From: Candidatus Latescibacterota bacterium
GTDB lineage: Bacteria; Latescibacterota; UBA2968; UBA8231
DNA length: 64,000 nt
Assembly: GCA_965242865.1 (NCBI GenBank)
Contig: CBDETK010000013.1
Coordinates: forward strand, 4,000,001 to 4,064,000
Direction of reading: 5' to 3'
Positions 3,899 through 19,876 of this stretch are shown here, piece after piece. The position numbers and the translations under genes are program-made. How positions within the stretch are numbered: the stretch's first letter is position 1; every line of letters starts with the position of its first letter. The notes below the pieces were generated by a model. It did no database searches and had not been told where the DNA came from. It worked only from the letters and a program-made list of their open reading frames with translations.

Positions 3899-4471
3899 CT
3901 ACCTACGACCGTCCGCCGCAAGCGGTAATCGTCTGTCCGGTGATTCTTCTTTAGTGAACCTATTGAGTTCATCCGGGAACCATTCTACGAAAGCCTTCGC
4001 ATCAGAGTAGAGTTTGTATATTTCTTCGGAGGTTTTCTCAAGTGAGAAGCTGCCATAGTCGCCATGAACAAGACGATTTCTCTCACGACCAATTTCTAAG
4101 AATGCCTGTATAGATAGTTCTACGTCGTTATTCGTTTTCACCTTTTCCGTTATGTGATTCTTGAAGGAATCTCCAAATAGACTAAAAAACCTATTGGCAT
4201 TCTTCTTCTCCCAATCAAACCATGTGTGGTACTGGCGACTCACTGCTTTGTTTTGCACAAGCCACTTTATAGGATGATCTTTTCCAGTAACCTGTTCCAC
4301 AAAATTGACCACTACCTCCGTCATAGACCGTTCAAAATAGCTCGCGGCAGCTACCAACAATACTTTCCTGAAGTTTTCATCTGCAACACTGCGCCATGAA
4401 ATTTCGCCTGACTTGTACAAGAAGGTCAATATATCAGAGAAATCCTTGTATAAGCCATCAATAACACTCAT
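3899..4471 (-). CDS. HEPN-domain protein (RiboL-PSP-HEPN-like), putative RNase effector
   Basis: RNRLVH (Rx4H) motif and N-terminal AAASYFE helix. Low GC; translationally coupled to the DUF262 gene (overlap at 4471). Confidence 0.75.
   Translation of the reverse strand: MSVIDGLYKDFSDILTFLYKSGEISWRSVADENFRKVLLVAAASYFERSMTEVVVNFVEQVTGKDHPIKWLVQNKAVSRQYHTWFDWEKKNANRFFSLFGDSFKNHITEKVKTNNDVELSIQAFLEIGRERNRLVHGDYGSFSLEKTSEEIYKLYSDAKAFVEWFPDELNRFTKEESPDRRLPLAADGRR
3947..3959 (+). repeat. 13-bp direct repeat TTCTTTAGTGAAC, copy 1 (copy 2 at 5734-5746)
   Basis: Identical 13-mers close to both ends of the low-GC DUF262-HEPN block. Confidence 0.6.
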
Positions 4472-5643
4472 CAGAATTCGGCTCCCCCCACAAGTTCTCG
4501 TGCCCTATTCAGTCTCTTATGTACATTTGAGGTGGCCGTAGTGCCTACTCGGCTCGCTTCAGCGAACTCCTTGTCTTTTTCGAGTGCTTGCAGGTGCTCT
4601 ATGTCTATTTCACCAGCGACGACGCGTCGTTCTGCAAATGCCTTCTCACAGACAACCGTAAAAACTGACTCATAGAGCGCAACGTTAAACCGATTGTTTA
4701 TCTTATTTTTGAAAGCAATGTCCGGCAAATTGGAGCATGCCTCTAGGAAAGACTCAAAAAGTTTCCGGCAGTACACATTCTGCTCTGGACGTTGATCTTT
4801 ACATTTTCTAGAAAACTGGTTCAAGAATTTGGCCAGAGAAGGCGCGTAATTATCGCCATCGACAAGTGTGGCAAACCCACGAAGAAGAAATTCAATGTCC
4901 CTCATATGTAAATCAGGTATGGATTGTCCCAAAATTCTCCGCCACTTCGGCAGATTATTAATATCGTACAGTACATTGTAGAAATCCGAGTGATACATAC
5001 TAGTGCGAATTTCTTGTGGACTCAGGGTTATACCGCCCGTATTGAGTCGGTTAAATATCTCATATATTGAGGAGTCGTCGGAGGGCGTATTCTGTTTGAC
5101 GACAATATTTCTTATTGGTCGTAAATCGAACTGGGTCTTGTAGTCACCAAGCGTCGCGTAGTTCAGACCCTTAAACATATTTGGATGATTGGGAATTTTT
5201 TCAGGCAGCCGGAGGTTGAAAGGCTGAAAATAGCTAGCGTCGTGCAGTATTTCTTCTGGAATATATCCCTCTTTATCGAATATAGAGCGAAGTTTTACTC
5301 GCGTTTCTTTCCGCGGGAATCGCTTCTTGATAAAATAGTAAATCGACATCAGGCGCTGTTGGCCATCTATGACGAGAAACTTGTTATGATCCTGTTCGTA
5401 AAGGAACAGTTGTGGTACTGGTAGGCCGAGTATGAGGGATTCGATCAATTTAGAGGCACGCCCTAAATCCCAGACGAAGTTGCGCTGAAAGCCGGGAATG
5501 CGTACCGCACCAGATTCCACGAAGCTGTGCAATGTCATTACATTGAAATCGTTGGGAGATACGGTAATGTCGTACTCCTCGACTTGTACCTCGTCCGCGT
5601 CTTCTGCGTAATCATCAAACCAAGATTGTCCGTTTTCGTCCAT
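4471..5643 (-). CDS. DUF262 (GmrSD N-terminal / ParB-like) protein
   Basis: FQRNFVW, SLILGLPVP, IDGQQR and FNRLN are hallmark DUF262 motifs. Confidence 0.85.
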   Translation of the reverse strand: MDENGQSWFDDYAEDADEVQVEEYDITVSPNDFNVMTLHSFVESGAVRIPGFQRNFVWDLGRASKLIESLILGLPVPQLFLYEQDHNKFLVIDGQQRLMSIYYFIKKRFPRKETRVKLRSIFDKEGYIPEEILHDASYFQPFNLRLPEKIPNHPNMFKGLNYATLGDYKTQFDLRPIRNIVVKQNTPSDDSSIYEIFNRLNTGGITLSPQEIRTSMYHSDFYNVLYDINNLPKWRRILGQSIPDLHMRDIEFLLRGFATLVDGDNYAPSLAKFLNQFSRKCKDQRPEQNVYCRKLFESFLEACSNLPDIAFKNKINNRFNVALYESVFTVVCEKAFAERRVVAGEIDIEHLQALEKDKEFAEASRVGTTATSNVHKRLNRARELVGGAEF

Positions 5644-6331: not shown

Positions 6332-8290
6332 ATGACGCTTGTGAATGCAGTGCCGGCCGGGTGCCTGCTGGTGCTCGTGGCCCTTCGGGCAAGTCAAGCG
6401 ACGCCCCCGCCGGCCGAGGGCGACATCCCTCGCACCGCGTGGCCCGAAAGCTGGTTCCACCCGCCGCGCACGGCCGCGGAAATCGGCTTGACGACCTTCG
6501 GCCAGTCGCCCATGCTCGACGAACTCGTGGCGGCCGGCGAACTGCCGCCGGTGGAGGAGCGGCTCCCGGACGACCCGATTGTCGTCGAGCCGCTCGACGG
6601 GATTGGGACGTATGGGGGCACCGCTCGGCTCTTCCTCGCCGGCGAGCAGCTCCTCAACGTGCCCGAAGGAACCCTGCGCCCAGGCCCGCAGCTCCAGCTA
6701 ACGCTGCCCAACTTTGCCGAGCGCGTCGAGTACCACGACGACGCCCACACCCTGACGGTCGCCCTCCGGCCCGGCCACAAGTGGTCGGATGGGCACCCGG
6801 TGACGGCCGACGACTTTGTCTTTTGGTTCGACCGCGTCCAGATGAACAAAAGCCTCACGCCCGTGGTGTCGCCGCGCTTTAAGGGGGCCCGCATTGAAAA
6901 ACGCGGTCCTCACCTCTTTAGCTATCACTTTCCCCAGCCGATGCCGCTTTTTGTCAAGCACCTCGCCCACAATAGCTCGCACCTGTCGGCCCCGGCGCAC
7001 TTTATGCGCCGCTACCATCCCGACTTTACCGACGCGGACCAGCTCGCACGCGAAGCAGCCGAGCTCGGCCTGCAAGACTGGCGCACGTACTTCCAAGCCG
7101 TTGTCAATACCCGCGACCTAATGGTCTTTCACAAGCCGGTGCAGACCGCTTATGTGGTGGTCAGCAAGACCTCGACGCGCGTCCGCTATCGCCGCAACCC
7201 CTATTACCCCAAAGTAGATCCAGCCGGCAACCAACTGCCCTACATAGATTACCTTGAAGTCCAGCGGGTTGACAGCCCCGAGATCATGGCGGCCAAGGCC
7301 GCCACCGGGCAGGTCGATTTTGCCGGGCGGCAGTTTAAGACCGCCGACATTCCGCTGTTTAAGCGCTTTGAACGAGACAATGGCTATGCGACGTACCTCT
7401 GGCCCCGTCCCTACGGCTCGGACGTGGCCCTGATGGTCAACATGACCCACCCCGATGCGCGTCTCAGGCAAATTTTTCAAGATGTGCGCTTTCGCCGCGC
7501 CCTCTCGCTGGCCATTGACCGCGCCGAGATCAACGACATTGCCTATTACGGGCAGGGCATGCCTCGGCAGTTGACGGTCGTACCGTCGAGCCGCTACTTT
7601 GAGCCGGCCTTTGCCACCGCTTGGGCCGAGCACGATCCACAGCGCGCCCGCGCCTTGCTCGACGAGATGGGGTTGGTAGATCGCGACGGCGATGGCCGGC
7701 GCGAGCATCCCGATGGCCGCCCGCTTGAAATCACGCTGGAGTACACGCTTGGGGAGACGCCTAAGCAAGTTACTGTGGATTTGGTAACGGCCCACTGGCG
7801 AGAAGTAGGGCTGCACATCAACCGCAAGCAAATAAGCGGCGCCCTGCAAGGCATCCGCACCCGAGGCGGAGTCATGGACATGAGCATCTGGCACGCCGAC
7901 CGCAACGCCGACATCCTCTTTCCCATCGAGCCTTTTTGGTACGTGCCCATGCACGTAGGGCAGGAGGTGACCCAGTGGCCGGAGTGGTCGCGGTGGTATC
8001 GGTCGGACGGAGGGCGCGGCTGGCTGCCGCCGGCCAAAGTCCGCGACCTAATCGCTTGGTGGGAGGTGCTCCGCCGCACCTCAGACCTCCAAGAGCGCAT
8101 TGCTATGGGCAAGAAAATTCTCCAGAGCCAAGCCGAAAACCTGTGGGCACTCGGCATCATCGGCCTAGGGCCACACCCGGTCATCGTCAGCAATCGGCTG
8201 CACAATGTCCCGCGCCAAGGCTATTGGGGGTGGGATTCGCGCTGGTCTTGGCCCTACTATCCAGAGACTTGGTATCTGCAACAAAACTGA
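6332..8290 (+). CDS. ABC transporter substrate-binding protein (peptide/nickel family 5)
   Basis: ELPPVEERLP, GTYGG, KWSDGHPVTADD and RNPYYxKVDxxGNQLPYID. Confidence 0.9.
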   Translation: MTLVNAVPAGCLLVLVALRASQATPPPAEGDIPRTAWPESWFHPPRTAAEIGLTTFGQSPMLDELVAAGELPPVEERLPDDPIVVEPLDGIGTYGGTARLFLAGEQLLNVPEGTLRPGPQLQLTLPNFAERVEYHDDAHTLTVALRPGHKWSDGHPVTADDFVFWFDRVQMNKSLTPVVSPRFKGARIEKRGPHLFSYHFPQPMPLFVKHLAHNSSHLSAPAHFMRRYHPDFTDADQLAREAAELGLQDWRTYFQAVVNTRDLMVFHKPVQTAYVVVSKTSTRVRYRRNPYYPKVDPAGNQLPYIDYLEVQRVDSPEIMAAKAATGQVDFAGRQFKTADIPLFKRFERDNGYATYLWPRPYGSDVALMVNMTHPDARLRQIFQDVRFRRALSLAIDRAEINDIAYYGQGMPRQLTVVPSSRYFEPAFATAWAEHDPQRARALLDEMGLVDRDGDGRREHPDGRPLEITLEYTLGETPKQVTVDLVTAHWREVGLHINRKQISGALQGIRTRGGVMDMSIWHADRNADILFPIEPFWYVPMHVGQEVTQWPEWSRWYRSDGGRGWLPPAKVRDLIAWWEVLRRTSDLQERIAMGKKILQSQAENLWALGIIGLGPHPVIVSNRLHNVPRQGYWGWDSRWSWPYYPETWYLQQN

Positions 8291-8293
8291 GCC

Positions 8294-9277
8294 ATGATCA
8301 ACTACATCATCCGCCGCGTCCTGATTATGATCCCCACGCTGCTGGCCGTGTCGGTGCTGGTCTTTGTCGTCATCCAGTTGCCGCCCGGGGACATCATCAC
8401 GTCGCGCCTGCAAGAGTTGCAGGCCGAGGGCCAAGACATCTCCGAGGAACAAATCGCCGCCTTGCGCGCCCGCTACCATCTCGACGACCCGCTGTTCATC
8501 CAATACTGCAAGTGGATGGGCGGCTTCCTACAGGGCGATATGGGCTATTCGGTGATGTATGGCCAGTCGGTCAACAACCTGATCTGGGAGCGGCTTGGCT
8601 ACACCTTGCTGATCACCTCGACCGCTACCTTGCTGACTTGGCTGGTGGCCTTCCCGGTGGGCGTCTATTCGGCCCTGCGCCAGTACTCAGCGCTCGACTA
8701 CACGGCCACGCTCGCGGCCTTCGTCGGCTTGGCCACGCCCAACTTCCTGCTCGCGCTGGTTTTGATGTACTTGGGATACGAGTGGTTTGGGATCGCCGTG
8801 GGCGGGTTGTTTTCGCCCGAGTACGCGAGTGCGCCGTGGAGCTTGGCCAAGCTCGCGGACTTGCTCGGGCACCTGTGGATCCCGGCCGTGGTCATCGGCA
8901 CGGCCGGCATGGCCGGGCTGATGCGGATCATGCGGGCCAACCTCCTCGACGAGCTGGGCAAGCCTTACGTGACGACCGCGCTGGCCAAGGGCTTGGGGCC
9001 GGTCCGCTTGGTGATTAAGTACCCGTTGCGCATTGCCATCAATCCCTTTATCAGCACCGTCGGCTGGATGCTGCCGCACCTGATCTCGGGCTCGGCTATC
9101 ACCAGCGTGGTGTTGAGCCTGCCGACGACCGGCCCCTTGCTGCTCGAATCCCTCCGCAACCAAGACATGTATTTGGCCGGCAGCTTCCTCCTCGTGCTCA
9201 GCGTCCTGACGGTCATCGGCACCTTGCTGTCGGACATTCTCTTGGCCATTGCCGACCCGCGCATCCGCTATGAGTGA
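8294..9277 (+). CDS. ABC transporter permease (DppB/OppB-like)
   Basis: YIIRR N-terminus, EAA-like YVTTALAKG and DPRIRYE end. Confidence 0.9.
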   Translation: MINYIIRRVLIMIPTLLAVSVLVFVVIQLPPGDIITSRLQELQAEGQDISEEQIAALRARYHLDDPLFIQYCKWMGGFLQGDMGYSVMYGQSVNNLIWERLGYTLLITSTATLLTWLVAFPVGVYSALRQYSALDYTATLAAFVGLATPNFLLALVLMYLGYEWFGIAVGGLFSPEYASAPWSLAKLADLLGHLWIPAVVIGTAGMAGLMRIMRANLLDELGKPYVTTALAKGLGPVRLVIKYPLRIAINPFISTVGWMLPHLISGSAITSVVLSLPTTGPLLLESLRNQDMYLAGSFLLVLSVLTVIGTLLSDILLAIADPRIRYE

Positions 9278-10376
9278 CGATCGCCCGGCCGCCCAACTGG
9301 CCGACGCCTCGCAGTGGCGGCTGATGTGGATGCGCTTCCGCCGCCATCGGCTGGCCCTAGCCGGTAGTGCGGCCCTGCTCGCACTCTACGGCCTCGCAGC
9401 CCTGTGCGAATTTATCTCGCCGTACCGGCCCGACCAGCGCCACGCCCAGTACGTCCTCTGCCCGCCGCAGTCGATCCGCTTCTTCGACGGCGAGGGGCGC
9501 TTTCACTGGCGTCCCTTTGTCCACGGCGTGCGGCGAGATACGACCGCCGGCCCGTGGCAGCGCGAGTACCGCGTCAACGCCGAGGCCGTGTATCCAATCC
9601 GCTTTTTTGTGCGCGGCCCGGCCTACGAGTTTTGGGGGCTTTTCAACGCGGACTTGCACTTGTTCGGCGCGGGTAGCGGGCCGTTGTTCCTCTTTGGCAC
9701 CGACGACTTGGGCCGCGATCTCTTCAGCCGAATCATACATGGGGCGCGCATTTCGCTCACCATTGGGCTGATCGGCGTGGCCTTGACCTTTCTCATCGGC
9801 ATCCTGCTGGGGGGGGTGGCTGGTTATTACAGCGGCTGGGTCGATGTGGTGGTGCAGCGCATGATCGAGGTCCTGATGGCCGTGCCGCAACTGCCCCTGT
9901 GGATGGCCTTGAGCGCGGCCCTGCCAGCGCATTGGCCGCCGCTGCGGATTTACTTTGGCGTCACCATCATTCTCTCGCTGATGGGCTGGACCGGGTTGGC
10001 GCGGGTGGTGCGCGGCCGCTTTCTGTCGTTGCGCGACGAGGATTTTGTGGTTGCCGCCCGCCTATCGGGCACCAGCGAGTTGAAAATCATTTTCAAGCAC
10101 CTGTTGCCGTCGTTCCTCAGCCACGTGATCACGTCGGCCACCCTAGCGGTGCCGGGCATGATACTCGGCGAGACCGCGCTGAGTTTTTTGGGGATTGGGT
10201 TGCGGGCTCCGGTAGTTAGCTGGGGCGTGCTGCTGCAAAAGGCGCAGAACTTTCAGGCCGTGGCCATGGCGCCGTGGCTGTTGTTGCCCGGGCTTTTCGT
10301 GGTCGTCGCGGTCTTGGCCTTCAACGTGGTCGGCGATGGGATGCGCGACGCGGCCGATCCTTACGCTAGCCGATAG
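9270..10376 (+). CDS. ABC transporter permease (DppC/OppC-like)
   Basis: FGTDDLGRDLFSRIIHGARISL, FVVAARLSG and GDGMRDAADP. ATG at 9270 overlaps the upstream stop. Confidence 0.9.
   Translation: MSDDRPAAQLADASQWRLMWMRFRRHRLALAGSAALLALYGLAALCEFISPYRPDQRHAQYVLCPPQSIRFFDGEGRFHWRPFVHGVRRDTTAGPWQREYRVNAEAVYPIRFFVRGPAYEFWGLFNADLHLFGAGSGPLFLFGTDDLGRDLFSRIIHGARISLTIGLIGVALTFLIGILLGGVAGYYSGWVDVVVQRMIEVLMAVPQLPLWMALSAALPAHWPPLRIYFGVTIILSLMGWTGLARVVRGRFLSLRDEDFVVAARLSGTSELKIIFKHLLPSFLSHVITSATLAVPGMILGETALSFLGIGLRAPVVSWGVLLQKAQNFQAVAMAPWLLLPGLFVVVAVLAFNVVGDGMRDAADPYASR
10049..10095 (+). repeat. 47-bp exact direct repeat, copy 1 (copy 2 at 19997-20043)
   Basis: GGTTGCCGCCCGCCTATCGGGCACCAGCGAGTTGAAAATCATTTTCA is present at both sites. 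Confidence 0.85.
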
Positions 10377-10415: not shown

Positions 10416-13400
10416 ATGCCGCGGATTTTCGACAACATTGAACAATCGCTCCGTCCAGCCCTAGCGGAAACCATGGGAGTTGCCGACCGGGCAGACTTCT
10501 GCGTGGGCTACTTCAACCTCCGCGGCTGGCGATCCATTGACGAATACGTCGAAAAATGGGATGGTGGAGACGGTCATTGCTGCCGTCTGCTGGTCGGCAT
10601 GCAGCGGCTGCCCCATGAAGAGCTTCGCATTGCGAGAAGTCTCTCGGCAAATGAAGAGTCGCTAGACAACCAGACGGCGTTGCAATTGAAGCGCAAGCTG
10701 GCGGAAGAGTTTCGAGAGCAACTGACGATTGGCGCACCCAACAACGCGGACGAGGCGGGCCTTCGCAGACTAGCGCGGCAGCTTGAAGCAAAGAAGGTCG
10801 TGGTCAAGCTGTTCCTCAAACACCTGCTTCACGCCACGCTCTACTTGTTGTTCCGCCCGGATCCGATCAATCCGACCGTCGGATATTTGGGCAGCAGCAA
10901 TCTCACGCAAGCGGGACTAGCTGGTCAGGGTGAACTCAACGTCGATGTGCTAGAGCACGACGCCTGTCAGAAGCTCGCTAAATGGTTTGAGGAACGGTGG
11001 AATGACCGTTGGTGCGTCGATATATCGAAAGAGCTGAGCGAAATCATCAATGAGAGTTGGGCGCGAGAGGAACCAATCCCGCCGTACCATATCTACGTTA
11101 AGATAGCCTACCATCTATCACAGGAAGCACGGGCTGGCCTAACCGAGTTTCGCATTCCCACAGACTTCGGCAACAAACTGCTCGACTTTCAGATGGCTGC
11201 GGTAAAAATCGCGGCCCATCTCCTGAACAAACGCGGCGGCGTCATTATCGGCGATGTTGTCGGGCTGGGTAAGACGCTCATGGCAACGGCTCTAGCGCGG
11301 GTATTTGAAGACGATTACGGGCTTGAGACCTTAATCATTTGCCCGAAGAATCTCGTTCCAATGTGGGAGGATTATCGCGAGCAGTACCGCATGCAGGCTC
11401 GCGTACTGTCGATCAGCCGCGTGATTAAAGAATTGCCCAACATGCGCCGTTACCGGCTGGTACTCATCGACGAGAGCCACAATCTGAGAAACCGCGAAGG
11501 CAAGAGATACCGCGCTATCCAAGAATACATCACGGAAAATGACAGCAAGTGCATCCTGCTGTCGGCGACCCCATACAACAAGACTTACCTAGATTTATCT
11601 AGCCAGCTTCGCCTATTTGTAGCCGATGATGCAGATCTCGGCGTTCGCCCGGAACGCTTGCTTAGGCAGATGGGTGAGACCGAGTTCGTGCGCCAGCACC
11701 AAGCCCCGGTTCGGTCCTTGGCAGCATTTGAAAAATCTGAATACGCCGCCGACTGGCGGGAGCTAATGCGCCTGTATCTCGTACGTCGGACTCGCAGCTT
11801 CATCCAAGACAACTATGCTGCCACAGATGAGAACAATGGGCGAAAGTATCTGACCTTTGAAGACGGTACGCGCTCCTATTTTCCAGCACGAGTCCCAAGG
11901 ACGCTTAGGTTTGATATAGATGAGCAATACGCCCGGCTGTTCGCGGACAACGTCGTTGAGGCCATAAACGGCTTGGAACTCCCGCGCTACGGTCTGGGCA
12001 ATTATGTCAAATCATCGCCGCCTACGCCTCCCACCGATACCGAAACAAAAATTCTAGACGACTTATCGCGTGCTGGTAAGCGCCTGATGGGCTTTTGCCG
12101 AACCAACCTGTTTAAGCGTCTGGAGAGCAGCGGTCATGCCTTTCTGCTGTCGGTCGAACGACACGTTCTCAGGAACTTCATTTTTCTTCACGCCATTGAT
12201 AATGACCTGCCGCTCCCCATCGGAACGATCGATGCCGGACTCTTGGATACGCAATCCTTCGACAGAGATGCTGATGAGGACGTCGGCGACTTCTTCGATG
12301 CGGAAGAGGAGGCCGATAGTGAAGGGCCCGGCGGAGCAATCGCGCTGAGGACCGAGGCCGGTTTCCGCCAGCGAGCCGCCGAGGTATATGCGCTCTATAC
12401 CAACCGCTACAAGAAGCGATTTCGCTGGTTGTCGCCACGCTACTTCGCCGCGGACCTCGGCCGTGCCCTAAAGGCCGACGCCAAGACGCTTCTCGACCTC
12501 CTAGCCCAATTCGGCGAGTGGTACGCGGCCAAGGACGCCAAGCTGGACGCGCTGGAAGAGTTGCTGAGGGCTGAACATGCGGACTGCAAAGTCTTGGTCT
12601 TTACCCAATTCGCCGACACGGTGCATTACCTAGAAAGCGAGTTGAAGGGACGCGGAGTGTCGAGCGTGACCGCTGTGACCGGGAATACGCCGGACGTGAC
12701 AAAACTCGCTTGGCGCTTCAGCCCAAGGAGCAACGAGAAAGACAGCTTTGGCCAAGAGGAACTACGCATACTGATTGCGACCGACGTGCTCAGCGAAGGG
12801 CAGAACCTGCAAGACTGCGCTGTCGTGGTGAACTACGACTTGCCGTGGGCCATTATCCGGCTGATTCAGCGAGCTGGCCGTGTTGACCGCATCGGCCAAC
12901 AGGCCGCCGAAATCCTGTGCTATTCCTTTCTCCCGGCTGATGGAATCGAACGCCTGATCGGGCTGCGGGAGCGCGTGCGGGTGCGCCTCAACCAGAACGC
13001 CGAAGTAGTAGGAACGGACGAGGCATTCTTTGAAGATGAAGACCAACAGGCCGTACTCGACCTCTACAACGAGAAGGCCGGTATTCTCGATGGCGACGAC
13101 GATACAGAAGTTGATCTCTCATCCTACGCCTACCAAATCTGGAAAAACGCAACCGATGCCGACCCATCGCTCAAAAAGAAGATTGAGGACTTGCCATCTG
13201 TAGTGTATTCCTCGAAAGCCTACCATGAACGGCTAGAGCAACCGGAAGGGGCTCTCGTTTATATGCGTACCACACAGGGGAACGATGCGTTGGCTTGGCT
13301 TGACCGCGATGGTAGCAGCGTTACCGAGAGTCAATTCGAGATTCTGCGGACGGCCGAGTGCTCGCCCGACACGCCGGCCTTACCGCGTCGCGACACCCAT

Positions 13401-13778
13401 CACGATCTGGTCAGTAAGGCCGCAGAGCACATTGCCCGCGAGGAAAAACAGGTCGGCGGCCAACTGGGGCGACCGTCTGGAGCTCGGTTCCGCACTTACG
13501 AACGCCTCAAGAACCATGCCGAACAGGTAGAAGGCACCCTGTTCGATACAGGACCTCTACGTCGGGCAATTGACGACATCTATCGCTATCCCTTGCGCCA
13601 AGCTGCGCTGGATACCCTGAACCGGCAGTTGCGTAGCGGGATTGCCGATGAGGCACTGGCCGAATTGGTCATCACGCTCAGGGACGAGGACCGACTCTGC
13701 ATCGTCCACAAAGAAGATGAACGCCAAGAACCAAGCATTATCTGCTCGCTGGGCCTTATTAAACAGGACAGGATCTAA
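10416..13778 (+). CDS. PLD-family nuclease domain fused to SNF2-like SF2 helicase (restriction-type subunit)
   Basis: N-terminal VGYF...LHATLY...GSSNLT (PLD). Helicase motifs GDVVGLGKT, DESH, SATP, TDVLSEGQNLQ and QRAGRVDRIG. Confidence 0.85.
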   Translation: MPRIFDNIEQSLRPALAETMGVADRADFCVGYFNLRGWRSIDEYVEKWDGGDGHCCRLLVGMQRLPHEELRIARSLSANEESLDNQTALQLKRKLAEEFREQLTIGAPNNADEAGLRRLARQLEAKKVVVKLFLKHLLHATLYLLFRPDPINPTVGYLGSSNLTQAGLAGQGELNVDVLEHDACQKLAKWFEERWNDRWCVDISKELSEIINESWAREEPIPPYHIYVKIAYHLSQEARAGLTEFRIPTDFGNKLLDFQMAAVKIAAHLLNKRGGVIIGDVVGLGKTLMATALARVFEDDYGLETLIICPKNLVPMWEDYREQYRMQARVLSISRVIKELPNMRRYRLVLIDESHNLRNREGKRYRAIQEYITENDSKCILLSATPYNKTYLDLSSQLRLFVADDADLGVRPERLLRQMGETEFVRQHQAPVRSLAAFEKSEYAADWRELMRLYLVRRTRSFIQDNYAATDENNGRKYLTFEDGTRSYFPARVPRTLRFDIDEQYARLFADNVVEAINGLELPRYGLGNYVKSSPPTPPTDTETKILDDLSRAGKRLMGFCRTNLFKRLESSGHAFLLSVERHVLRNFIFLHAIDNDLPLPIGTIDAGLLDTQSFDRDADEDVGDFFDAEEEADSEGPGGAIALRTEAGFRQRAAEVYALYTNRYKKRFRWLSPRYFAADLGRALKADAKTLLDLLAQFGEWYAAKDAKLDALEELLRAEHADCKVLVFTQFADTVHYLESELKGRGVSSVTAVTGNTPDVTKLAWRFSPRSNEKDSFGQEELRILIATDVLSEGQNLQDCAVVVNYDLPWAIIRLIQRAGRVDRIGQQAAEILCYSFLPADGIERLIGLRERVRVRLNQNAEVVGTDEAFFEDEDQQAVLDLYNEKAGILDGDDDTEVDLSSYAYQIWKNATDADPSLKKKIEDLPSVVYSSKAYHERLEQPEGALVYMRTTQGNDALAWLDRDGSSVTESQFEILRTAECSPDTPALPRRDTHHDLVSKAAEHIAREEKQVGGQLGRPSGARFRTYERLKNHAEQVEGTLFDTGPLRRAIDDIYRYPLRQAALDTLNRQLRSGIADEALAELVITLRDEDRLCIVHKEDERQEPSIICSLGLIKQDRI

Positions 13779-13915: not shown

Positions 13916-16900
13916 ATGCCCACACACCTCGACCATAAGAAAATCAGAGAATATCTAGCGAATTTCGATCTCCAATCCTTGTTTATTGAGGAGCTCGGTT
14001 GGGACCGTGGCGGCGAGAATCTGGAAGTCCCCGTCGCTAATACGAGATATGCTCTCAAACCCATTGCCCATAAGCGCGGCTTGGTGGCCTACCAGTACGT
14101 CGCTAACGCGGACGACGTCCTCCCCGATCATCCCACTCGCCAGAAGATCGAAAGAGCTGTCGCCAAAATTGTTCGCGAGCACATCATCGTGTACGCCTCG
14201 CCCGACCGGAGTACGCACTATTGGCAATGGGTGAAGCGCGAACCCGGCCAGCCTGACCGCTCGCGCTCGCATCTTTACCAAAAGGGGCAGGCGGGAGAAG
14301 CACTGATTCAGAAGTTGGAGCGGATCGTCTTCACGCTGGACGAGGAAGACGATCTGACCATCGTCGATGTGTCGGGGCGGGTGCGGGCGGCCTTCGATGT
14401 TGAGAAGGTCACAAAGAGGTTCTACGACCGCTTCAAGAAGGAACACCTCGCTTTCCTCAGCTTCATCGAAGGAATCGAGAACGTAGCCGATCGCGAGTGG
14501 TACGCCTCGTTGATGCTCAACCGGATGATGTTCATCTACTTTTTTCAGAAACGGGGCTTTCTCGATGGCGACGCGGACTATCTACAAAACCGCCTACAAA
14601 AAGTGCAGCAACAGCAGGGTAACGGAAACTTCTACGGCTTCTACCGGCTATTCCTGTTGCGGCTGTTTCACGAGGGGCTGGGACAGCCGGAGGCTGACCG
14701 CACCCCCGAATTGGCGGCCTTGCTCGGGGAGGTTCCGTATCTCAACGGCGGCCTCTTTGAAGTCCATGACCTAGAACGCGACAACCAAAACATCCACATC
14801 CCGGATGAGGCGTTCCAGAAAATTTTCGATTTCTTCGACGCCTACCAGTGGCATCTCGACGACCGGCCGCTTCGCAACGACAACGAGATCAACCCGGATG
14901 TCCTCGGTTACATCTTTGAGAAATACATCAACCAGAAGCAGATGGGGGCCTACTATACCAAGGAGGACATTACCGGGTATATCAGCCGCAACACCATCAT
15001 TCCCTTCCTGTTCGACCGGGCGAAGAAAGAGTGCTCCATCGCCTTCAAGCCCGGTGGCGGAGTGTGGCGGCTATTGGCGGACGACCCAGACCGATATTTT
15101 TACGAGGCGGTTCGCCACGGTATTACCTATGACATCCATAAAGGGAAGCCCCTTGCGGACAAGCGCGAGTTGCCGCCTGCGATAGCTGTTGGCCTGAACG
15201 ACGTGTCCAAACGCGAAACTTGGAACAAAGCGGCCCCGCCCGACTATGCTCTGCCGACCGAGACTTGGCGCGAGCACGTCGCCCGCCGCCAACGCTATGA
15301 AGAAGTCTATGCCAAGCTGGCCGCGGGCGAAGTCGCGTCAATCAACGACCTCATCACGTATAATCTGGACATCGAGAAATTCGCTCAAGACGCAATCGCG
15401 GGAAGCGAGGGGCCTGAACTCATTCGCGCCTTTTGGAAGGCGATTACTCAGGTCTCTATCCTCGATCCCACCTGCGGTTCCGGTGCCTTCTTGTTTGCCG
15501 CGCTCAACATCTTGGAGCCGATATACACGGCCTGCCTAGAGGCCATGCAGGGGTTCCTCGACGATCTGAAGCGTTCGACGCGCAAGCACCATCCTGAGAA
15601 AATGAGTGATTTCCGCAAGGTGCTGAAACAGGTCGCTAAACACGCTAGCGAACCGTATTTCACCCTCAAGTCCATCATCGTCAATAACCTGTACGGCGTG
15701 GACATTATGGAAGAGGCCGTGGAGATCTGCAAACTGCGTTTATTTTTGAAGTTGGTCGCGCAGTTGGAGAGTTACGAGCAGATCGAGCCGCTGCCCGACG
15801 TCGACTTCAACATTCGTGCCGGTAACACCCTCGTCGGCTTCACTTCGTTTGAAGAAGTAGAAAACGCGCTGAGTTTTGATCTGAGAAAACTGCCGGAACT
15901 CCCAAAGATCAAGGAACGCGCCGAAATTGCCGACCACGCCTTCCGTAAGTTCCGCGAAATGCAGACCGAACACGACATGGAAGCAGGCAAGTTTGCCGGC
16001 GCGAAAGCTGAATTGCGGAGGCGATTGAACGACCTGCGGGACGAACTGGATCAGTATTTGGCGGGTGATTACGGCGTCAAAGTGGATGACAAAAAGGGTT
16101 ACGCTACATGGCGTGACAGCCACCAGCCGTTTCACTGGTTCGTCGAGTTTTATGGGATTATGGACGACGGAGGGTTCGACGTGATTGTTGGGAATCCGCC
16201 GTATCTGGAAATACGGGAGGTTCCTTACTCAACGCGGCATTTTGCCTGTGAGGAAAGTGGTGCCATTCACGCGATGTGTACTGAACGTAGCCTCGCCCTA
16301 TCTGGGAAGAGTGGATGCATAAGTATGATAGTGCCCCTAGCCTTAGTGTCTACTCAACGCATGACTATCTTGCAGGCCATGCTGGAGAAGGACCACGATT
16401 GCTGGTACTCGAACTTTTCTTGGAGGCCTAGAAAGCTGTTTGATACAGTGAATCGCGCTTTGACCATTTTCGTGATCACAAAGCCGCAAAATAAAAAAGA
16501 CACCTATTCCACAGCTTATCTCAAATGGAACTCTGATAATAGAGGTTATTTGACTTCAACTATAAGATATGCAGAGTGTCCAAGAGGTCGAAGATCATTT
16601 TGGGCACCCAAACTTGGAGAGAGTATCGAGAACTCGATACTACAAAAATGCATCTCAATTCACACAACAATGGGGACTTTTGTTGGGCGATCTAGGAACC
16701 TTGTATATTATCGCACAACGGGCGGCCTCTATTGGAAAGTTTTTACAAATTTTGCTCCAACATTCTGTGTCAACGGAGTAGTGGGAAAGTCGTCACGAGA
16801 AACGAGTTTTTCACTTGCGAACAAAGCACATGTTAAATCTGCTGTATCAATTCTAAGCAGTGACGTATTTTGGTGGTGGTACACAGTAACATCTAACTTG

Positions 16901-17335
16901 AGAGACCTTAATCCTTCTGATTGGAGGCATTTCCCCGTACCTGAATCCGCAATGAATGATTCCAAAGTACAGCGATTGGGAATAGAATATATTGCAGACT
17001 TACAAAGGAATAGCACTATTCTCATTCGTAACCAACGAAGTACTGGCGTGACAGAAACACAATCTTTCAAAGTTCAGAAATCCAAGCCTATCATTGAAGA
17101 AATAGACAAAATTCTTGCTGCACACTACGGCTTAACTGACGAAGAACTGGACTTCATCATCAACTACGACATCAAGTATCGCATGGGACTAAAAGCCTCT
17201 TTTGAAGCAAATACAAATACCAATGGCCTCCTCGAACTAGCGGCAAAGGTCTATGAGGGACTCTCCGATGCTGACTTGGACGATATGGAAGAAATCATTC
17301 ATGACCGTCGCAACTTTTTCGGAGATAGAACCTAA
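13916..17335 (+). CDS. N6-adenine DNA methyltransferase (Eco57I-like) with C-terminal TRD and antitoxin-like tail
   Basis: YLNGGLF, GAYYT, LDPTCGSGAF (motif I), GVDI, GNPPY (motif IV); extra ~48 aa after NYDIKYRMG. Confidence 0.88.
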   Translation: MPTHLDHKKIREYLANFDLQSLFIEELGWDRGGENLEVPVANTRYALKPIAHKRGLVAYQYVANADDVLPDHPTRQKIERAVAKIVREHIIVYASPDRSTHYWQWVKREPGQPDRSRSHLYQKGQAGEALIQKLERIVFTLDEEDDLTIVDVSGRVRAAFDVEKVTKRFYDRFKKEHLAFLSFIEGIENVADREWYASLMLNRMMFIYFFQKRGFLDGDADYLQNRLQKVQQQQGNGNFYGFYRLFLLRLFHEGLGQPEADRTPELAALLGEVPYLNGGLFEVHDLERDNQNIHIPDEAFQKIFDFFDAYQWHLDDRPLRNDNEINPDVLGYIFEKYINQKQMGAYYTKEDITGYISRNTIIPFLFDRAKKECSIAFKPGGGVWRLLADDPDRYFYEAVRHGITYDIHKGKPLADKRELPPAIAVGLNDVSKRETWNKAAPPDYALPTETWREHVARRQRYEEVYAKLAAGEVASINDLITYNLDIEKFAQDAIAGSEGPELIRAFWKAITQVSILDPTCGSGAFLFAALNILEPIYTACLEAMQGFLDDLKRSTRKHHPEKMSDFRKVLKQVAKHASEPYFTLKSIIVNNLYGVDIMEEAVEICKLRLFLKLVAQLESYEQIEPLPDVDFNIRAGNTLVGFTSFEEVENALSFDLRKLPELPKIKERAEIADHAFRKFREMQTEHDMEAGKFAGAKAELRRRLNDLRDELDQYLAGDYGVKVDDKKGYATWRDSHQPFHWFVEFYGIMDDGGFDVIVGNPPYLEIREVPYSTRHFACEESGAIHAMCTERSLALSGKSGCISMIVPLALVSTQRMTILQAMLEKDHDCWYSNFSWRPRKLFDTVNRALTIFVITKPQNKKDTYSTAYLKWNSDNRGYLTSTIRYAECPRGRRSFWAPKLGESIENSILQKCISIHTTMGTFVGRSRNLVYYRTTGGLYWKVFTNFAPTFCVNGVVGKSSRETSFSLANKAHVKSAVSILSSDVFWWWYTVTSNLRDLNPSDWRHFPVPESAMNDSKVQRLGIEYIADLQRNSTILIRNQRSTGVTETQSFKVQKSKPIIEEIDKILAAHYGLTDEELDFIINYDIKYRMGLKASFEANTNTNGLLELAAKVYEGLSDADLDDMEEIIHDRRNFFGDRT

Positions 17336-17337
17336 TA

Positions 17338-17751
17338 ATGGCCCGACAAAGCGTGGTATTGGACACGGATATTCTCTCCGCAATTATGCGCCAAAATCCT
17401 GCGGTCATATCTACAGCTCAAGCCTATCTCAGAGAGCACCACCAATTCCACTTTTCCATCATTACACAGTACGAGATTCTACGTGGTCTAAAAGTAAAGG
17501 AGGCGACTCAACAGATAGCAACTTTTGAGAATTTCTGTTCGCAGAATACCATCCTCCCTCTGAGTGAAGAAGTAATCTCAAAAGCCGCTGAAATATATGC
17601 AGATCTGCGAAAACGAGGAGAACCGGTTGGGGATGCAGATATTTTGATTGCAGCTACAGCAATAGTGAACAAATTCGGGATCGCCACCAACAATGAGAAC
17701 CATTTTCAAAGAATCTCCGGGCTTCATGTAGAGAACTGGTTAAAGGTTTGA
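17338..17751 (+). CDS. vapC: PIN-domain ribonuclease toxin (VapC family)
   Basis: VLDTDILS, ITQYEILRG, DADILIAATA and TNNENHF carry the PIN acidic residues. Confidence 0.88.
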   Translation: MARQSVVLDTDILSAIMRQNPAVISTAQAYLREHHQFHFSIITQYEILRGLKVKEATQQIATFENFCSQNTILPLSEEVISKAAEIYADLRKRGEPVGDADILIAATAIVNKFGIATNNENHFQRISGLHVENWLKV

Positions 17752-17772
17752 AGCTGTCTGATGAAATCAGCA

Positions 17773-17890
17773 ATACAATTTGTCTTAGTAGCCATTCGCC
17801 GCACTAGATGCTTAAAGACACAGGGCCACAAGAGGCACAAAAGACACAAAGATACAATCTGTCTTAGCAGCCATCGCCACACTAGACGCT
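17773..17890 (+). repeat. Two imperfect ~40-bp direct repeats (17773-17812, 17852-17890) around a 39-bp CACA-periodic spacer
   Basis: ATACAATTTGTCTTAGTAGCCATTCGCCGCACTAGATGCT versus ATACAATCTGTCTTAGCAGCCATCGCCACACTAGACGCT. Confidence 0.7.
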
Positions 17891-18532
17891 ATGAATTCTG
17901 AGAACCGAATTCTTTTAAGACCCGATAATTCTTGCTATCCGACGGCGTTGCGGCGTTGTTCCGATGCTGGGCGTCTGCGAACGGTCACAGCACAAGGCGA
18001 CCTCGGCATCCTTGACAGGACCCGAATAGGCTTCTTCTGTTCTGTGCGCTGTCCGGGCGACGCAATCCTCAAGACCTACGATCTTGCGCGGATGCTGCGC
18101 CAAACTGACGTGACGATTGTCGGCGGTTTCCAGTCGCCGATGGAGAAGGAGTGTCTAGACCTGCTGTTGCGCGGCTCGGCGTCCGTGGTGGTCTGTCCGG
18201 CGCGGGGGCTTGGCCGGATGCGGGTTCCGAAAAGCTGGAAGGAGCCGCTGGCTGAGGGACGTTTGCTGATTCTGTCCTTTTTTGACGACGGCATTCGCCG
18301 CCCCACCGCCGATCTCGCAGTCAAGCGCAACGCCCATATCGCCGCGCTCGCCGACCGCATCCTTATTGCCCACGCCGAAAAGGGCGGAAAAACCGAGGCA
18401 TTGTGCAAGGAAGCACTCGCCCACGGAAAGTTAGTGTTTGCCATAGACTCGCCAGATAACGCACACCTCGTAGAACTCGGCGTTGTGCCGGTCCATGTCG
18501 AAGACTTCACATCTTTGGTTGTGGGGAAGTGA
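17891..18532 (+). CDS. DprA/Smf-like SLOG-fold protein (short form)
   Basis: YPxxL...GDLGIL, IVGGFQSPME, RNAHIAALAD, AEKGGKT and A..GK.VFA. Confidence 0.75.
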   Translation: MNSENRILLRPDNSCYPTALRRCSDAGRLRTVTAQGDLGILDRTRIGFFCSVRCPGDAILKTYDLARMLRQTDVTIVGGFQSPMEKECLDLLLRGSASVVVCPARGLGRMRVPKSWKEPLAEGRLLILSFFDDGIRRPTADLAVKRNAHIAALADRILIAHAEKGGKTEALCKEALAHGKLVFAIDSPDNAHLVELGVVPVHVEDFTSLVVGK

Positions 18533-18581
18533 ATGCGATACTTGGCGTAGTCCCAGCCTTAACCCTATTTAGGAGGGAGCC

Positions 18582-19177
18582 ATGTTGCCGATAGTTGACA
18601 TATTCTCGAAACGCCAGAAGAGACTTCAGGGGAAGGTTCCTGAAGTCTATGTTTATGACAACTTGCCCGAGCCTCTCAGGTCGGCTATCAATTCGCCAAC
18701 GGGCAGATTATCCGCATCGACTCTGAGTTCACTCATGATGAAATTGTTAAGCCTGCGCTCAAGCTGCTCAATCAACAGCAGTATGCTGGAGCACAACAGG
18801 AGTTCTTAAAAGCTCATGAACACTATCGCAAGGGAAACGCTAAAGAAGCTCTCAGCGAGTGTCTAAAAGCATTTGAAAGCGTAATGAGAGCGATTTGTGA
18901 TAAGCGAGGCTGGAGTTACAGCAATAATGCAACAGCAAAATCCTTGATCCAAGCTTGTTTCGATAACGGGCTAATTCCATCGTTTTGGCAATCGCACTAT
19001 TCGTCCCTGAGAAATCTTTTGGAGAGTAGTGTACCTACCGGACGCAACAAGCTGAGCGGGCATGGTCAAGGCACAACTCCGGTCTCCGTGCCAAGTCACC
19101 TTGTCGCGTACATGTTGCACATGACGGCATCGGCTATTGTGTTTCTGACGGAAGCTGATATGAAAGGAAAATCGTGA
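18582..19177 (+). pseudogene. Abortive-infection (AbiJ-N/Abi_C-like) protein with internal deletion and frameshift
   Basis: N-terminus IFSKRQK...YVYDNLPEPLR, then from ~18680 another frame reads VGYQFANGQIIRIDSEFTHDEIVKPAL...KAFESVMRAIC...RNKLSGHGQG to the stop at 19177. Confidence 0.7.
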
Positions 19178-19244: not shown

Positions 19245-19628
19245 ATGACCTCTCCCCTCCTTGACGTCCACGACCTGAGCGTCCGTATCACCCGCGACGA
19301 GGGCGTGGTGCGGCCGCTCAACGGCGTCAGCTTCCGCATCAACGCCGGCCAAGCCGTGGGCATCGTCGGCGAAAGCGGGTGCGGCAAGACCACGACGTCC
19401 AACGCCCTGCTGCAAATTTTGCCGCCGGCCGCCGAGATTACCAGCGACCACATCCGCTACCGACGCAAGCTGGCGCAAGCTGGACGAGCGCGAGATCGAC
19501 CTCGCTGCGCTCGCCGCGCATAGCGACGAGATGCACCAGATCCGCGTCGGCGACATTTCCATGATATCGCCGACGAGCCGACTACGGCCCTCAACGTGAC
19601 CGTGCAGGCGCGGGTGCTCAAGCTGATG
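19245..19628 (+). pseudogene. Peptide ABC transporter ATPase (DppD-like) remnant
   Basis: Walker A GIVGESGCGKT, a frameshift near 19470, then ISMI joined to Walker B IADEPTTALNVTVQARVLKLM; the middle and C-terminus are missing. Confidence 0.8.
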
Positions 19629-19663
19629 TCTATACCGGCGGCTACGCGGGAACCGGCCGGGGC

Positions 19664-19876
19664 TTGGACGAATTCATCCGCCAGACTGACGCCGATCTAG
19701 ATCAGCGGCTCAAGCGGGAAATCCAGACCGCCATTGACGAGATTGGCCGCATTGAGCAGCCCTTCCGCGACGCCATTGCCTCCGATCAGGACCAAATCGA
19801 AACGGCGCAGGCGGCCGTGGCCCGCATCCAGCAGACCTTAGAGGAGGATATCCTGCCGCTGGTGTTGGGGAACTAA
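19664..19876 (+). pseudogene. Orphan coiled-coil C-terminal gene fragment
   Basis: Helical, coding-like reading (DEFIRQTDADLDQRLKREIQ...) without a good start, in a rearranged zone. Confidence 0.35.

Follow-up and report, generated by a model that had tools for sequence, protein, structure and literature searches.

Toxin-antitoxin (TA) modules and restriction-modification (RM) systems cluster in defence islands, and a direct physical link between the two has so far been lacking. Among the closest described arrangements are VapBC modules that combine a PIN-domain RNase with an AF2212-like antitoxin (DUF104, COG2880), the Eco57I/MmeI family of type IIG-like methyltransferases, and PrrC-EcoprrI, in which an anticodon nuclease is latent via a type IC RM complex. 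In the part of Makarova et al. 2009 (PMC2701414) that concerns these families, the COG2880-PIN pairing is predicted, and COG2880/DUF104 and COG2442/DUF433 are both predicted as antitoxins of PIN toxins; the relevant part of Matelska et al. 2017 (PMC5499597) describes PIN genes coupled to type I RM genes, sometimes with "antitoxin elements missing", and states that direct TA-RM interaction had not been shown. Here we analyse a 64,000-nt stretch of DNA (the window) from Candidatus Latescibacterota bacterium (GenBank assembly GCA_965242865.1, contig CBDETK010000013.1, positions 4,000,001 to 4,064,000 of the forward strand; positions below are counted from its first letter), in which a segment of antitoxin origin forms the C-terminal tail of a predicted DNA methyltransferase (hereafter the methylase), directly ahead of a VapC-type PIN toxin gene. 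We consider it rather probable that a vapBC cassette was deletion-fused to the methylase and that the tail still neutralises VapC, whose translation would be coupled to that of the methylase. The features on which the argument turns are as follows.

13916..17335, + strand: methyltransferase-antitoxin-tail fusion open reading frame (ORF), 1139 aa plus stop, recognised by Pfam, PADLOC PDLC03628 and the DPTCGSG/NPPY motifs.
16210..17122, + strand: variable target-recognition domain (TRD) cassette of low G+C, marked by a G+C drop, an identity drop and replacement in other contigs.
17123..17188, + strand: conserved C-terminal end of the methylase family (...EELDFIINYDIKYRMG), marked by the ends of homologs and the DNA likeness of other contigs.
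17183..17185, + strand: in-frame ATG (M1090 of YRMG), a possible internal start without support.
17189..17332, + strand: antitoxin-derived tail of 48 residues, with a polar linker LKASFEANTNTNG followed by the conserved LLELAAKVYEGLS...DRRNFFG motif.
17321..17324, + strand: GGAG in the last tail codons, a weak Shine-Dalgarno 13 nt ahead of the PIN start codon.
17338..17751, + strand: VapC-type PIN toxin gene, 137 aa (Pfam PIN PF01850, E 4.2e-13).

The fusion ORF matches the Pfam families Eco57I (E 1.3e-21) and MmeI_Mtase (E 1.3e-7), and the DPTCGSG and NPPY motifs are readable in its translation; judged by sequence, it is an Eco57I/MmeI-type N6-adenine DNA methyltransferase of the gamma class, with motifs I and IV and its own TRD. 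Its match to the PADLOC profile PDLC03628 "REase_MTase_IIG" (1069 bits) covers residues 5-1092 and profile positions 3-1096 of 1100, which puts the end of the family profile near residue 1092. Beyond G1091 the frame continues for 48 residues (LKASFEANTNTNGLLELAAKVYEGLSDADLDDMEEIIHDRRNFFGDRT) to the stop codon TAA at 17333-17335, which is followed by the two nucleotides TA and then by ATG 17338 of the PIN ORF, and the ORF list of the window holds no separate antitoxin-capable ORF between the methylase and PIN genes. A sequence-only reading of this stretch had described the same anatomy, with an in-frame extension of about 48 residues, a stop 2 bp before an intact PIN gene and no separate antitoxin ORF, and both the ORF list and the sequence agree with it. 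It had also stated, correctly, that homologous methylases end soon after YDIKYRMG. In a family search with methylase residues 800-1139, which returned 3704 proteins at E<=0.001, 118 of the best 120 homologs end 0-13 residues past this motif or its variants, and among these 120 the tail is present only in the window's protein and in P0002.

A search confined to proteins of 626-1994 aa and scoring only residues 1092-1139 recovered the tail in 12 of 17 candidates. These 12 proteins, each standing for a 90%-identity cluster, are all full-length methylases with an identical junction, YRMG-L-E/K-x-S-...-LL-E/K-LAAKVYEG, and the 10 clusters besides the window's protein and P0002 contain 30 member sequences. 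An assembly error was considered as the source of the fusion and rejected, given that 12 clusters from separate assemblies have it. A tail search in proteins longer than 88 aa gave 24 matches from 54 candidates, made up of the 12 full-length fusions, 8 methylase-tail fragments (one of which, P0186, reads through into PIN sequence), 3 transposase-tail clusters and 1 DUF104 protein. The transposase-tail clusters P0184, P0187 and P0188 are 185-aa proteins in which a transposase-like N-terminus of about 137 residues stands in frame with the tail (...TKADTNGLLELAAKVYEG...); if an intact PIN gene follows them, this would point to selection to keep the tail translated after destruction of the methylase.

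By homology search and alignment, the tail is a true homolog of DUF104/AF2212-like antitoxins, limited to their C-terminal half. A separate phmmer search with the 50-aa tail stretch against 1.84 billion representatives, a check that the sequence-only reading had proposed, returned 30 matches at E<=1e-3, of which 27 were fetched (P0137, P0143 and P0144, which are long and have 4-5 matched stretches each, were left out). Three of the 27 are methylase-tail fragments or relics and most of the others are proteins of 47-95 aa; in at least 9 the DUF104 signature A(V/I)(Y/F)E.G.F.P opens the sequence and LxLAxxVYxGLS...DRxxFFG closes it, and 6 of 6 free-standing antitoxins tested match Pfam PF01954 (AF2212-like, formerly DUF104). 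The 50-aa tail itself gave no match to PF01954 at E<=1, Pfam on the tail alone returning only a chance-level Ten1_2 (E 0.14), and it contains the C-terminal segment of the PIN-linked DUF104 subfamily, LxLAxxVYxGLS...(E)...DRxxFF. In the 30 rows of alignment A1, L19, A20 and R42 are invariant and V23, Y24, G26, S28, E36, F45 and F46 are conserved at 90% or above; the window's tail keeps every one of these columns. Its identity to the free-standing antitoxin of locus L012 is 80% over 35 residues. The likeness to free-standing antitoxins extends back to ...SFE(A/E)..., just past their last beta strand, so that the tail lacks the entire N-terminal domain of the antitoxin but hardly anything more: its alignment is confined to the C-terminal half, the N-terminal beta domain with YENGVF(K/R)PL is absent, and the methylase body occupies the place of the N-terminal DNA-binding domain. 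The resemblance to the C-terminal half of AF2212/DUF104 antitoxins that had been noted from the letters alone is thus real homology, as phmmer, alignment A1 and the PF01954 relatives agree. The only solved relative, AF2212 chain 2nwt, matches profile positions 28-63 only, in the N-terminal part, and no solved complex of an AF2212-like antitoxin with a PIN protein was found by sequence.

Outside methylases, 20 tail-like loci were available (L006 was excluded beforehand as a false positive). Eight have an intact PIN gene directly downstream (L001, L002, L004, L005, L021, L022, L024 and L025), three a truncated one (L015, L020 and L027) and nine none, and the PINs behind free-standing tail-like antitoxins are 52-71% identical to the window's. 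In L021 and L025 (genomes G072 and G074), proteins of 129-130 aa consist of a DUF433 domain plus the tail and lie directly upstream of PINs 66% identical to the window's; a putative toxin-binding segment is common, in these alignments, to antitoxin families that are classified separately (DUF104 and DUF433). In P0146 the tail stands behind a 140-aa region without family assignment. Found on several different N-terminal domains, the tail is thus a portable C-terminal module. A tail scan of metagenome contigs gave at least 3 loci, one of them the false positive L006, with no fusion among the matches listed.

The profile of the downstream PIN protein matches solved VapC chains (best E 1.2e-18), most of which were named tRNA(fMet)-specific endonucleases by their depositors; the protein has no match in PADLOC and is not homologous to PrrC/RloC. 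In the alignment to VapC 3tnd, the counterparts of D9, E46 and D101 are acidic, namely the active-site residues D7, E42 and D98 of Shigella VapC, and the fourth position, E119 there, is H122 here. The histidine would suit a decaying relic, in which the PIN is inactive or harmless and the tail a leftover with no present function, as would the ratio of nonsynonymous to synonymous substitution rates (dN/dS) of the PIN gene (0.29-0.55, with 0.55 between the window and locus L008) and the frequency in this class of orphan antitoxins and truncated PINs, with 12 of the 20 loci above lacking an intact PIN. Such decay nevertheless seems improbable to us. H122 is invariant in 10 of 10 aligned PINs of the subfamily, 8 of which keep their own intact upstream antitoxin (6 free-standing, 2 fused to DUF433), so that we take the subfamily to be active and the window's PIN to be presumably toxic; both the tail frame and the PIN frame remain unbroken in several species and in 12 clusters, at dN/dS values under 1; and the nearly invariant tail positions are all kept.

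Binding of the tail (alignment A1) to the PIN protein (alignment A2) was modelled in three runs. The interaction prediction score from aligned errors (ipSAE) was 0.73, 0.76 and 0.75, with a median of 0.75 against 0.00 for the best control; the mark is attained by 116 of 157 complexes with solved structures and by 2 of 215 pairs that were mismatched; the runs agree in at least 96% of contacts, and the predicted local distance difference test (pLDDT) value of the partner is 71-73. The modelled interface comprises PIN residues 10-11, 13-19, 46-66 and 98-101 and tail residues 12-13, 16-27, 31-40, 42 and 45-46; on the PIN it adjoins D9, E46 and D99/D101, and on the tail it falls on the conserved positions 19-27, 42 and 45-46. 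The model supports binding of the tail across the active-site face of the PIN, and this further check proposed from the letters alone, a structure prediction of tail plus PIN, came out in favour of the predicted interaction. No other AF2212-like antitoxin was found in the 6.0-Mb assembly (93.6% complete), where neither a tail search (E<=10) nor the A1 profile (E<=1) picks up any locus besides this one. The PIN profile finds in the same assembly this gene and one distant PIN at E 2e-5, and a PIN scan of genome contigs gave 3 loci.

The history of the fusion was read from a quick maximum-likelihood tree of methylase residues 1-770, with 57 rows that comprise the 12 fused proteins and the first 45 unfused proteins longer than 1000 aa from the family search; because resemblance to the window's TRD decided which unfused proteins entered, the sample may lack closer unfused relatives that have different TRDs. 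In this tree the 12 fused proteins form one clade with a value of 100 in the Shimodaira-Hasegawa-like approximate likelihood ratio test (SH-aLRT), sister to the unfused P0003/P0004, and by its topology the methylase-tail fusion arose once. As to the count of independent fusions elsewhere that had been suggested as a check, 12 clusters share the fusion, and all belong to one clade of single origin. Within the clade the catalytic body is 61-98% and the tail 79-94% identical to the window's, whereas residues ~780-1020 are only 13-46% identical between the window's protein and 10 of the 11 other fused proteins, the exception being P0002, which shares the window's TRD. Pairwise TRD identities separate the 12 proteins into about 8 TRD types, and the window's own TRD is common to the unfused P0003/P0004 (83-91%).

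In the DNA, the G+C content falls from ~0.55 to ~0.41 at ~16300, where the TRD starts, and stays low to ~17900; contigs of 4 other sequencing runs match the catalytic part and 17123-17187, with 16204/16210-17122 replaced, and their likeness stops exactly at 17187 in 4 of 4 runs (6, 4, 4 and 3 loose ends). Positions 17153-18608 are covered, with 36 differences and 30 gap letters, by a single contig of run X4, which spans the tail, the PIN gene and the DprA-like gene that follows it. Among same-genus copies, synonymous divergence, from small counts throughout, is 0.22-0.45 for the tail, 0.12-0.40 for the PIN gene, 0.18-0.46 for the DprA-like gene and 0.55-0.84 for the last 33 methylase codons. 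The patterns of TRD, junction and downstream genes make the locus a modular one, with a body, a swappable TRD, a conserved end and then a slot. The tail has a dN/dS of 0.18-0.24 among PIN-linked copies (8 synonymous and 6-8 nonsynonymous differences, Sd and Nd) and of 0.16-0.47 over all pairs, a difference that is not significant with these counts; the values support purifying selection on the tail across the methylase clade.

The tail is present in 4 of 30 other genomes of the genus, and a search with the C-terminal stretch of the methylase revealed a fifth related island, in genome G134. The contents of the slot are listed below.

G130 (locus L008): methylase-tail, PIN (85% identical), DprA-like gene.
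G125 (locus L009): methylase-tail, PIN, then the contig edge.
G118 (locus L011): methylase-tail, MNT nucleotidyltransferase, HEPN, DprA-like gene; no PIN.
G136 (locus L010): methylase absent; 91-aa open frame holding a decayed ...CRMG and the tail; MNT remnant; DprA-like gene; no PIN.
G134 (locus L030): methylase interrupted by a transposase gene, with the unfused end ...YRIGRESGK; DUF2283-like small ORF; DprA-like gene; the window's ATP-binding cassette (ABC) ATPase gene.

In L011 (775-1495) the exchange of the PIN for the MNT-HEPN pair coincides with the gene boundary, the start codon of MNT overlapping the tail stop (ATGA). The MNT remnant of L010 is internally deleted, and the small ORF of L030 was called DUF2283-like by eye. 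From this varied content it follows that the slot turns over and that the tail can outlive the PIN. The persistence of tails without a PIN in L010 and L011 also suits the relic described above, which it does not raise in our estimate beyond the improbable, and the neutral deletion-fusion that the sequence-only reading had offered as its alternative fits both the turnover of the slot and the survival of the tail without a PIN.

The same islands bear on a role in guarding restriction, which that reading had proposed in the sense of PrrC-EcoprrI. VapC would be latent on the methylase; inhibition, degradation or titration of the methylase or of the restriction complex by a phage would set it free, and translation in the infected cell would cease. 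A predicted physical tether of an RNase to an RM subunit, the retention of the fusion through about 8 TRD swaps within a defence island, the nearness of the PIN to VapCs that depositors named tRNA(fMet)-specific endonucleases and the description of PrrC as an RM guardian, in the pertinent part of a review (PMC12707154), all speak for abortive infection of this kind. Yet no sign of a trigger was seen; the single origin of the fusion deprives its link with the RM system of statistical weight; relatives swap the PIN for MNT-HEPN and leave the tail, or have a DUF2283 ORF and no tail, which is typical of cassette turnover and not of an integrated sensor; and the same addiction effect is expected of any TA pair. 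With the tail kept where the PIN was replaced (L011) or lost (L010) and the slot holding other cassettes (L030), a guard in the PrrC-EcoprrI sense is left unsupported but not refuted, and we regard it as unlikely. Little credence attaches, in our view, to its specific form as a built-in restriction guard, with one VapC tethered per methylase and freed by phage attack to abort infection. It is similarly doubtful that such attack would act through an anti-restriction protein, through proteolysis of the exposed tail or through a host translation shut-off that stops resupply, and we find it hard to credit that the clade keeps the tether, while exchanging DNA specificities freely, as part of a guard.

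Expression signals were considered for the tail and the PIN. The proximity of stop and start is kept among relatives, with the 2-nt gap in the window and in L008 and a TAATG overlap in L009, and the arrangement suggests that translation of VapC is coupled to that of the methylase. The tail could instead be made separately, by a start at ATG 17183 or by cleavage, giving a free antitoxin of about 50 aa, the methylase fusion being a mere frame overlap. That ATG, which encodes M1090 of ...YDIKYRMG, is present and in frame, a weak promoter-like site lies at 17066-17094, and in L010 a small tail-containing ORF stands without a methylase. The M of YRMG is, however, kept in most listed family members, tail-less ones included, so ATG 17183 is no dedicated start; no purine-rich Shine-Dalgarno lies just upstream of it; the promoter-like site is within chance (6 sites found against 4.9 expected from shuffled sequence), as are the promoter and terminator scans; and P0184, P0187 and P0188 join the tail to a transposase fragment without that ATG. 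We therefore hold separate production of the tail to be very unlikely.

Fusion of a vapBC cassette to the methylase, the explanation we favour, would have proceeded from an AF2212-like (DUF104)/PIN vapBC cassette that once lay directly behind the methylase of a two-gene restriction-like system of PLD-SNF2 and Eco57I/MmeI type. A single deletion would have removed the methylase stop codon together with the N-terminal AbrB-like domain of the antitoxin and joined its C-terminal toxin-binding segment in frame to ...YRMG. Carried on a 13-residue polar linker, the tail would wrap the PIN of VapC over the active-site face and hold VapC inactive. Because stop and start lie 2 nt apart and the Shine-Dalgarno is weak, only ribosomes fresh from completing a methylase-tail chain would translate VapC, and the antitoxin would for that reason never be in deficit; since the autoregulatory domain of the antitoxin is gone, expression would follow the methylase operon. 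The outcome would be an ordinary addiction effect, now bound to the methylase gene, in which the RNase would be set free if the methylase ORF were lost or truncated, or if the exposed tail were proteolysed.

Several points weigh against this explanation. The DNA around the fusion was covered in 3 of the 12 fused clusters and in one further contig, so that a downstream PIN could be looked for only in these. The tail is intact in L011 without a PIN and persists as an open relic in L010 without methylase or PIN, and an intact tail is therefore no proof of current function. Substitution counts over the 48 tail codons are small. The fourth acidic position of the PIN is a histidine across the subfamily, whose activity is assumed. 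Since solved structures include many VapBC complexes, resemblance to them may account in part for the pass of the complex model. Among the listed sequencing runs that hold this stretch, no RNA sequencing run is on record. Taken together with these points, the homology of the tail to antitoxins, the modelled binding, its conservation under purifying selection and its standing as the only candidate antitoxin of its family in the assembly make neutralisation of the RNase by the methylase itself, as had been suggested from the letters alone, the best reading.

The surroundings of the fusion include three further features.

10416..13778, + strand: PLD(HKD)-SNF2 helicase/nuclease gene, 1120 aa (PADLOC PDLC01075 "HKD+Snf2", E 3.1e-48; Pfam Helicase_C, SNF2-rel_dom, PLDc_2 and RE_NgoFVII).
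17773..17890, + strand: two copies of a direct repeat of ~40 nt at a spacing of 79, in the spacer between the PIN and DprA-like genes; L008 has one copy.
17891..18532, + strand: DprA-like (PsyrA-like) gene (Pfam DNA_processg_A, E 7.1e-9; PADLOC PsyrA, E 2.8e-15; 63% G+C).

Pfam finds no nuclease family in the N-terminal 500 residues of the methylase, and the PLD-SNF2 protein, encoded 138 nt upstream, is its likely restriction partner. The DprA-like gene stands after the variable slot in every related island seen (L003, L008, L010, L011 and L030), in L003, a Latescibacterota contig, behind a PIN fragment of 85% identity, and may be a fixed part of the PLD-SNF2/methylase system. The ~40-nt repeat is a local duplication; as a mark of cassette borders it was ruled out, since blastn-short finds 2 copies in the window, 1 in L008 and none in L010, L011 or L030.

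The defence island (10416 to ~19200) lies inside a peptide ABC-transporter operon in the order solute-binding protein, two permeases, island, ATPase (6332-10376 and 19245-19700). The ATPase gene downstream of it looks decayed, with a frameshift after ...IRYRRKL and an apparent deletion from the ...ISMI region to ...ADEPTTAL; in G134 (L030) the island is at the same place and the first 125 ATPase residues are in one frame. A 97-aa ORF at 18884-19177 matches only positions 43-133 of Pfam DUF7014 (E 1.1e-25) and is probably a 5'-truncated gene fragment at the right edge of the island. About 5 kb upstream, a GmrSD-type gene at 4471-5643 on the - strand (Pfam GmrSD_N, E 4.7e-30; PADLOC NsnA, E 9.6e-61) gives the region a second defence gene.

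If the favoured explanation holds, the TA-RM link here would be covalent, a VapB-type neutralising segment within a DNA methyltransferase, conserved in a clade that swaps specificities. Full-length and tail-less methylase, each with and without VapC, would make a simple test system for whether antitoxin segments can serve as portable tails, and whether tethering stabilises or guards restriction. For annotation, the locus indicates that the last part of an adjacent gene can conceal the "missing antitoxin" of a PIN gene. In the full-text literature covered, which leaves many subscription-journal papers outside, no description of a methyltransferase-antitoxin fusion was found.

Set against known systems, the locus resembles VapBC modules with AF2212-like antitoxins in that the PIN gene follows immediately, with its start at the antitoxin stop, and in that the tail has the C-terminal motif of the family. 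It differs from them in having no separate antitoxin gene and no N-terminal AbrB-like domain, in that PF01954 is unmatched by the tail, and in that the predicted neutralising segment is the C-terminus of a 1139-aa DNA methyltransferase. With PrrC-EcoprrI it shares an RNase gene within an RM locus and a presumed hold by an RM protein, but PrrC, a protein unrelated to PIN, has no antitoxin segment covalently matched to it and responds to a known phage trigger (Stp), whereas here the hold would be a borrowed VapB tail and no trigger is known. The relevant part of Matelska et al. 2017 (PMC5499597) deals with type I hsd operons; its authors report no case with type II systems, and no fusion is described there. 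As in other methyltransferases of the Eco57I/MmeI family, the match to PDLC03628 is full-length and the TRD varies among close relatives; unlike them, the methylase bears 48 extra C-terminal residues of antitoxin origin, and its nuclease appears to be a separate PLD-SNF2 protein and not a domain of the same chain. The parts, then, are all known; what is new is their covalent combination and its conservation.

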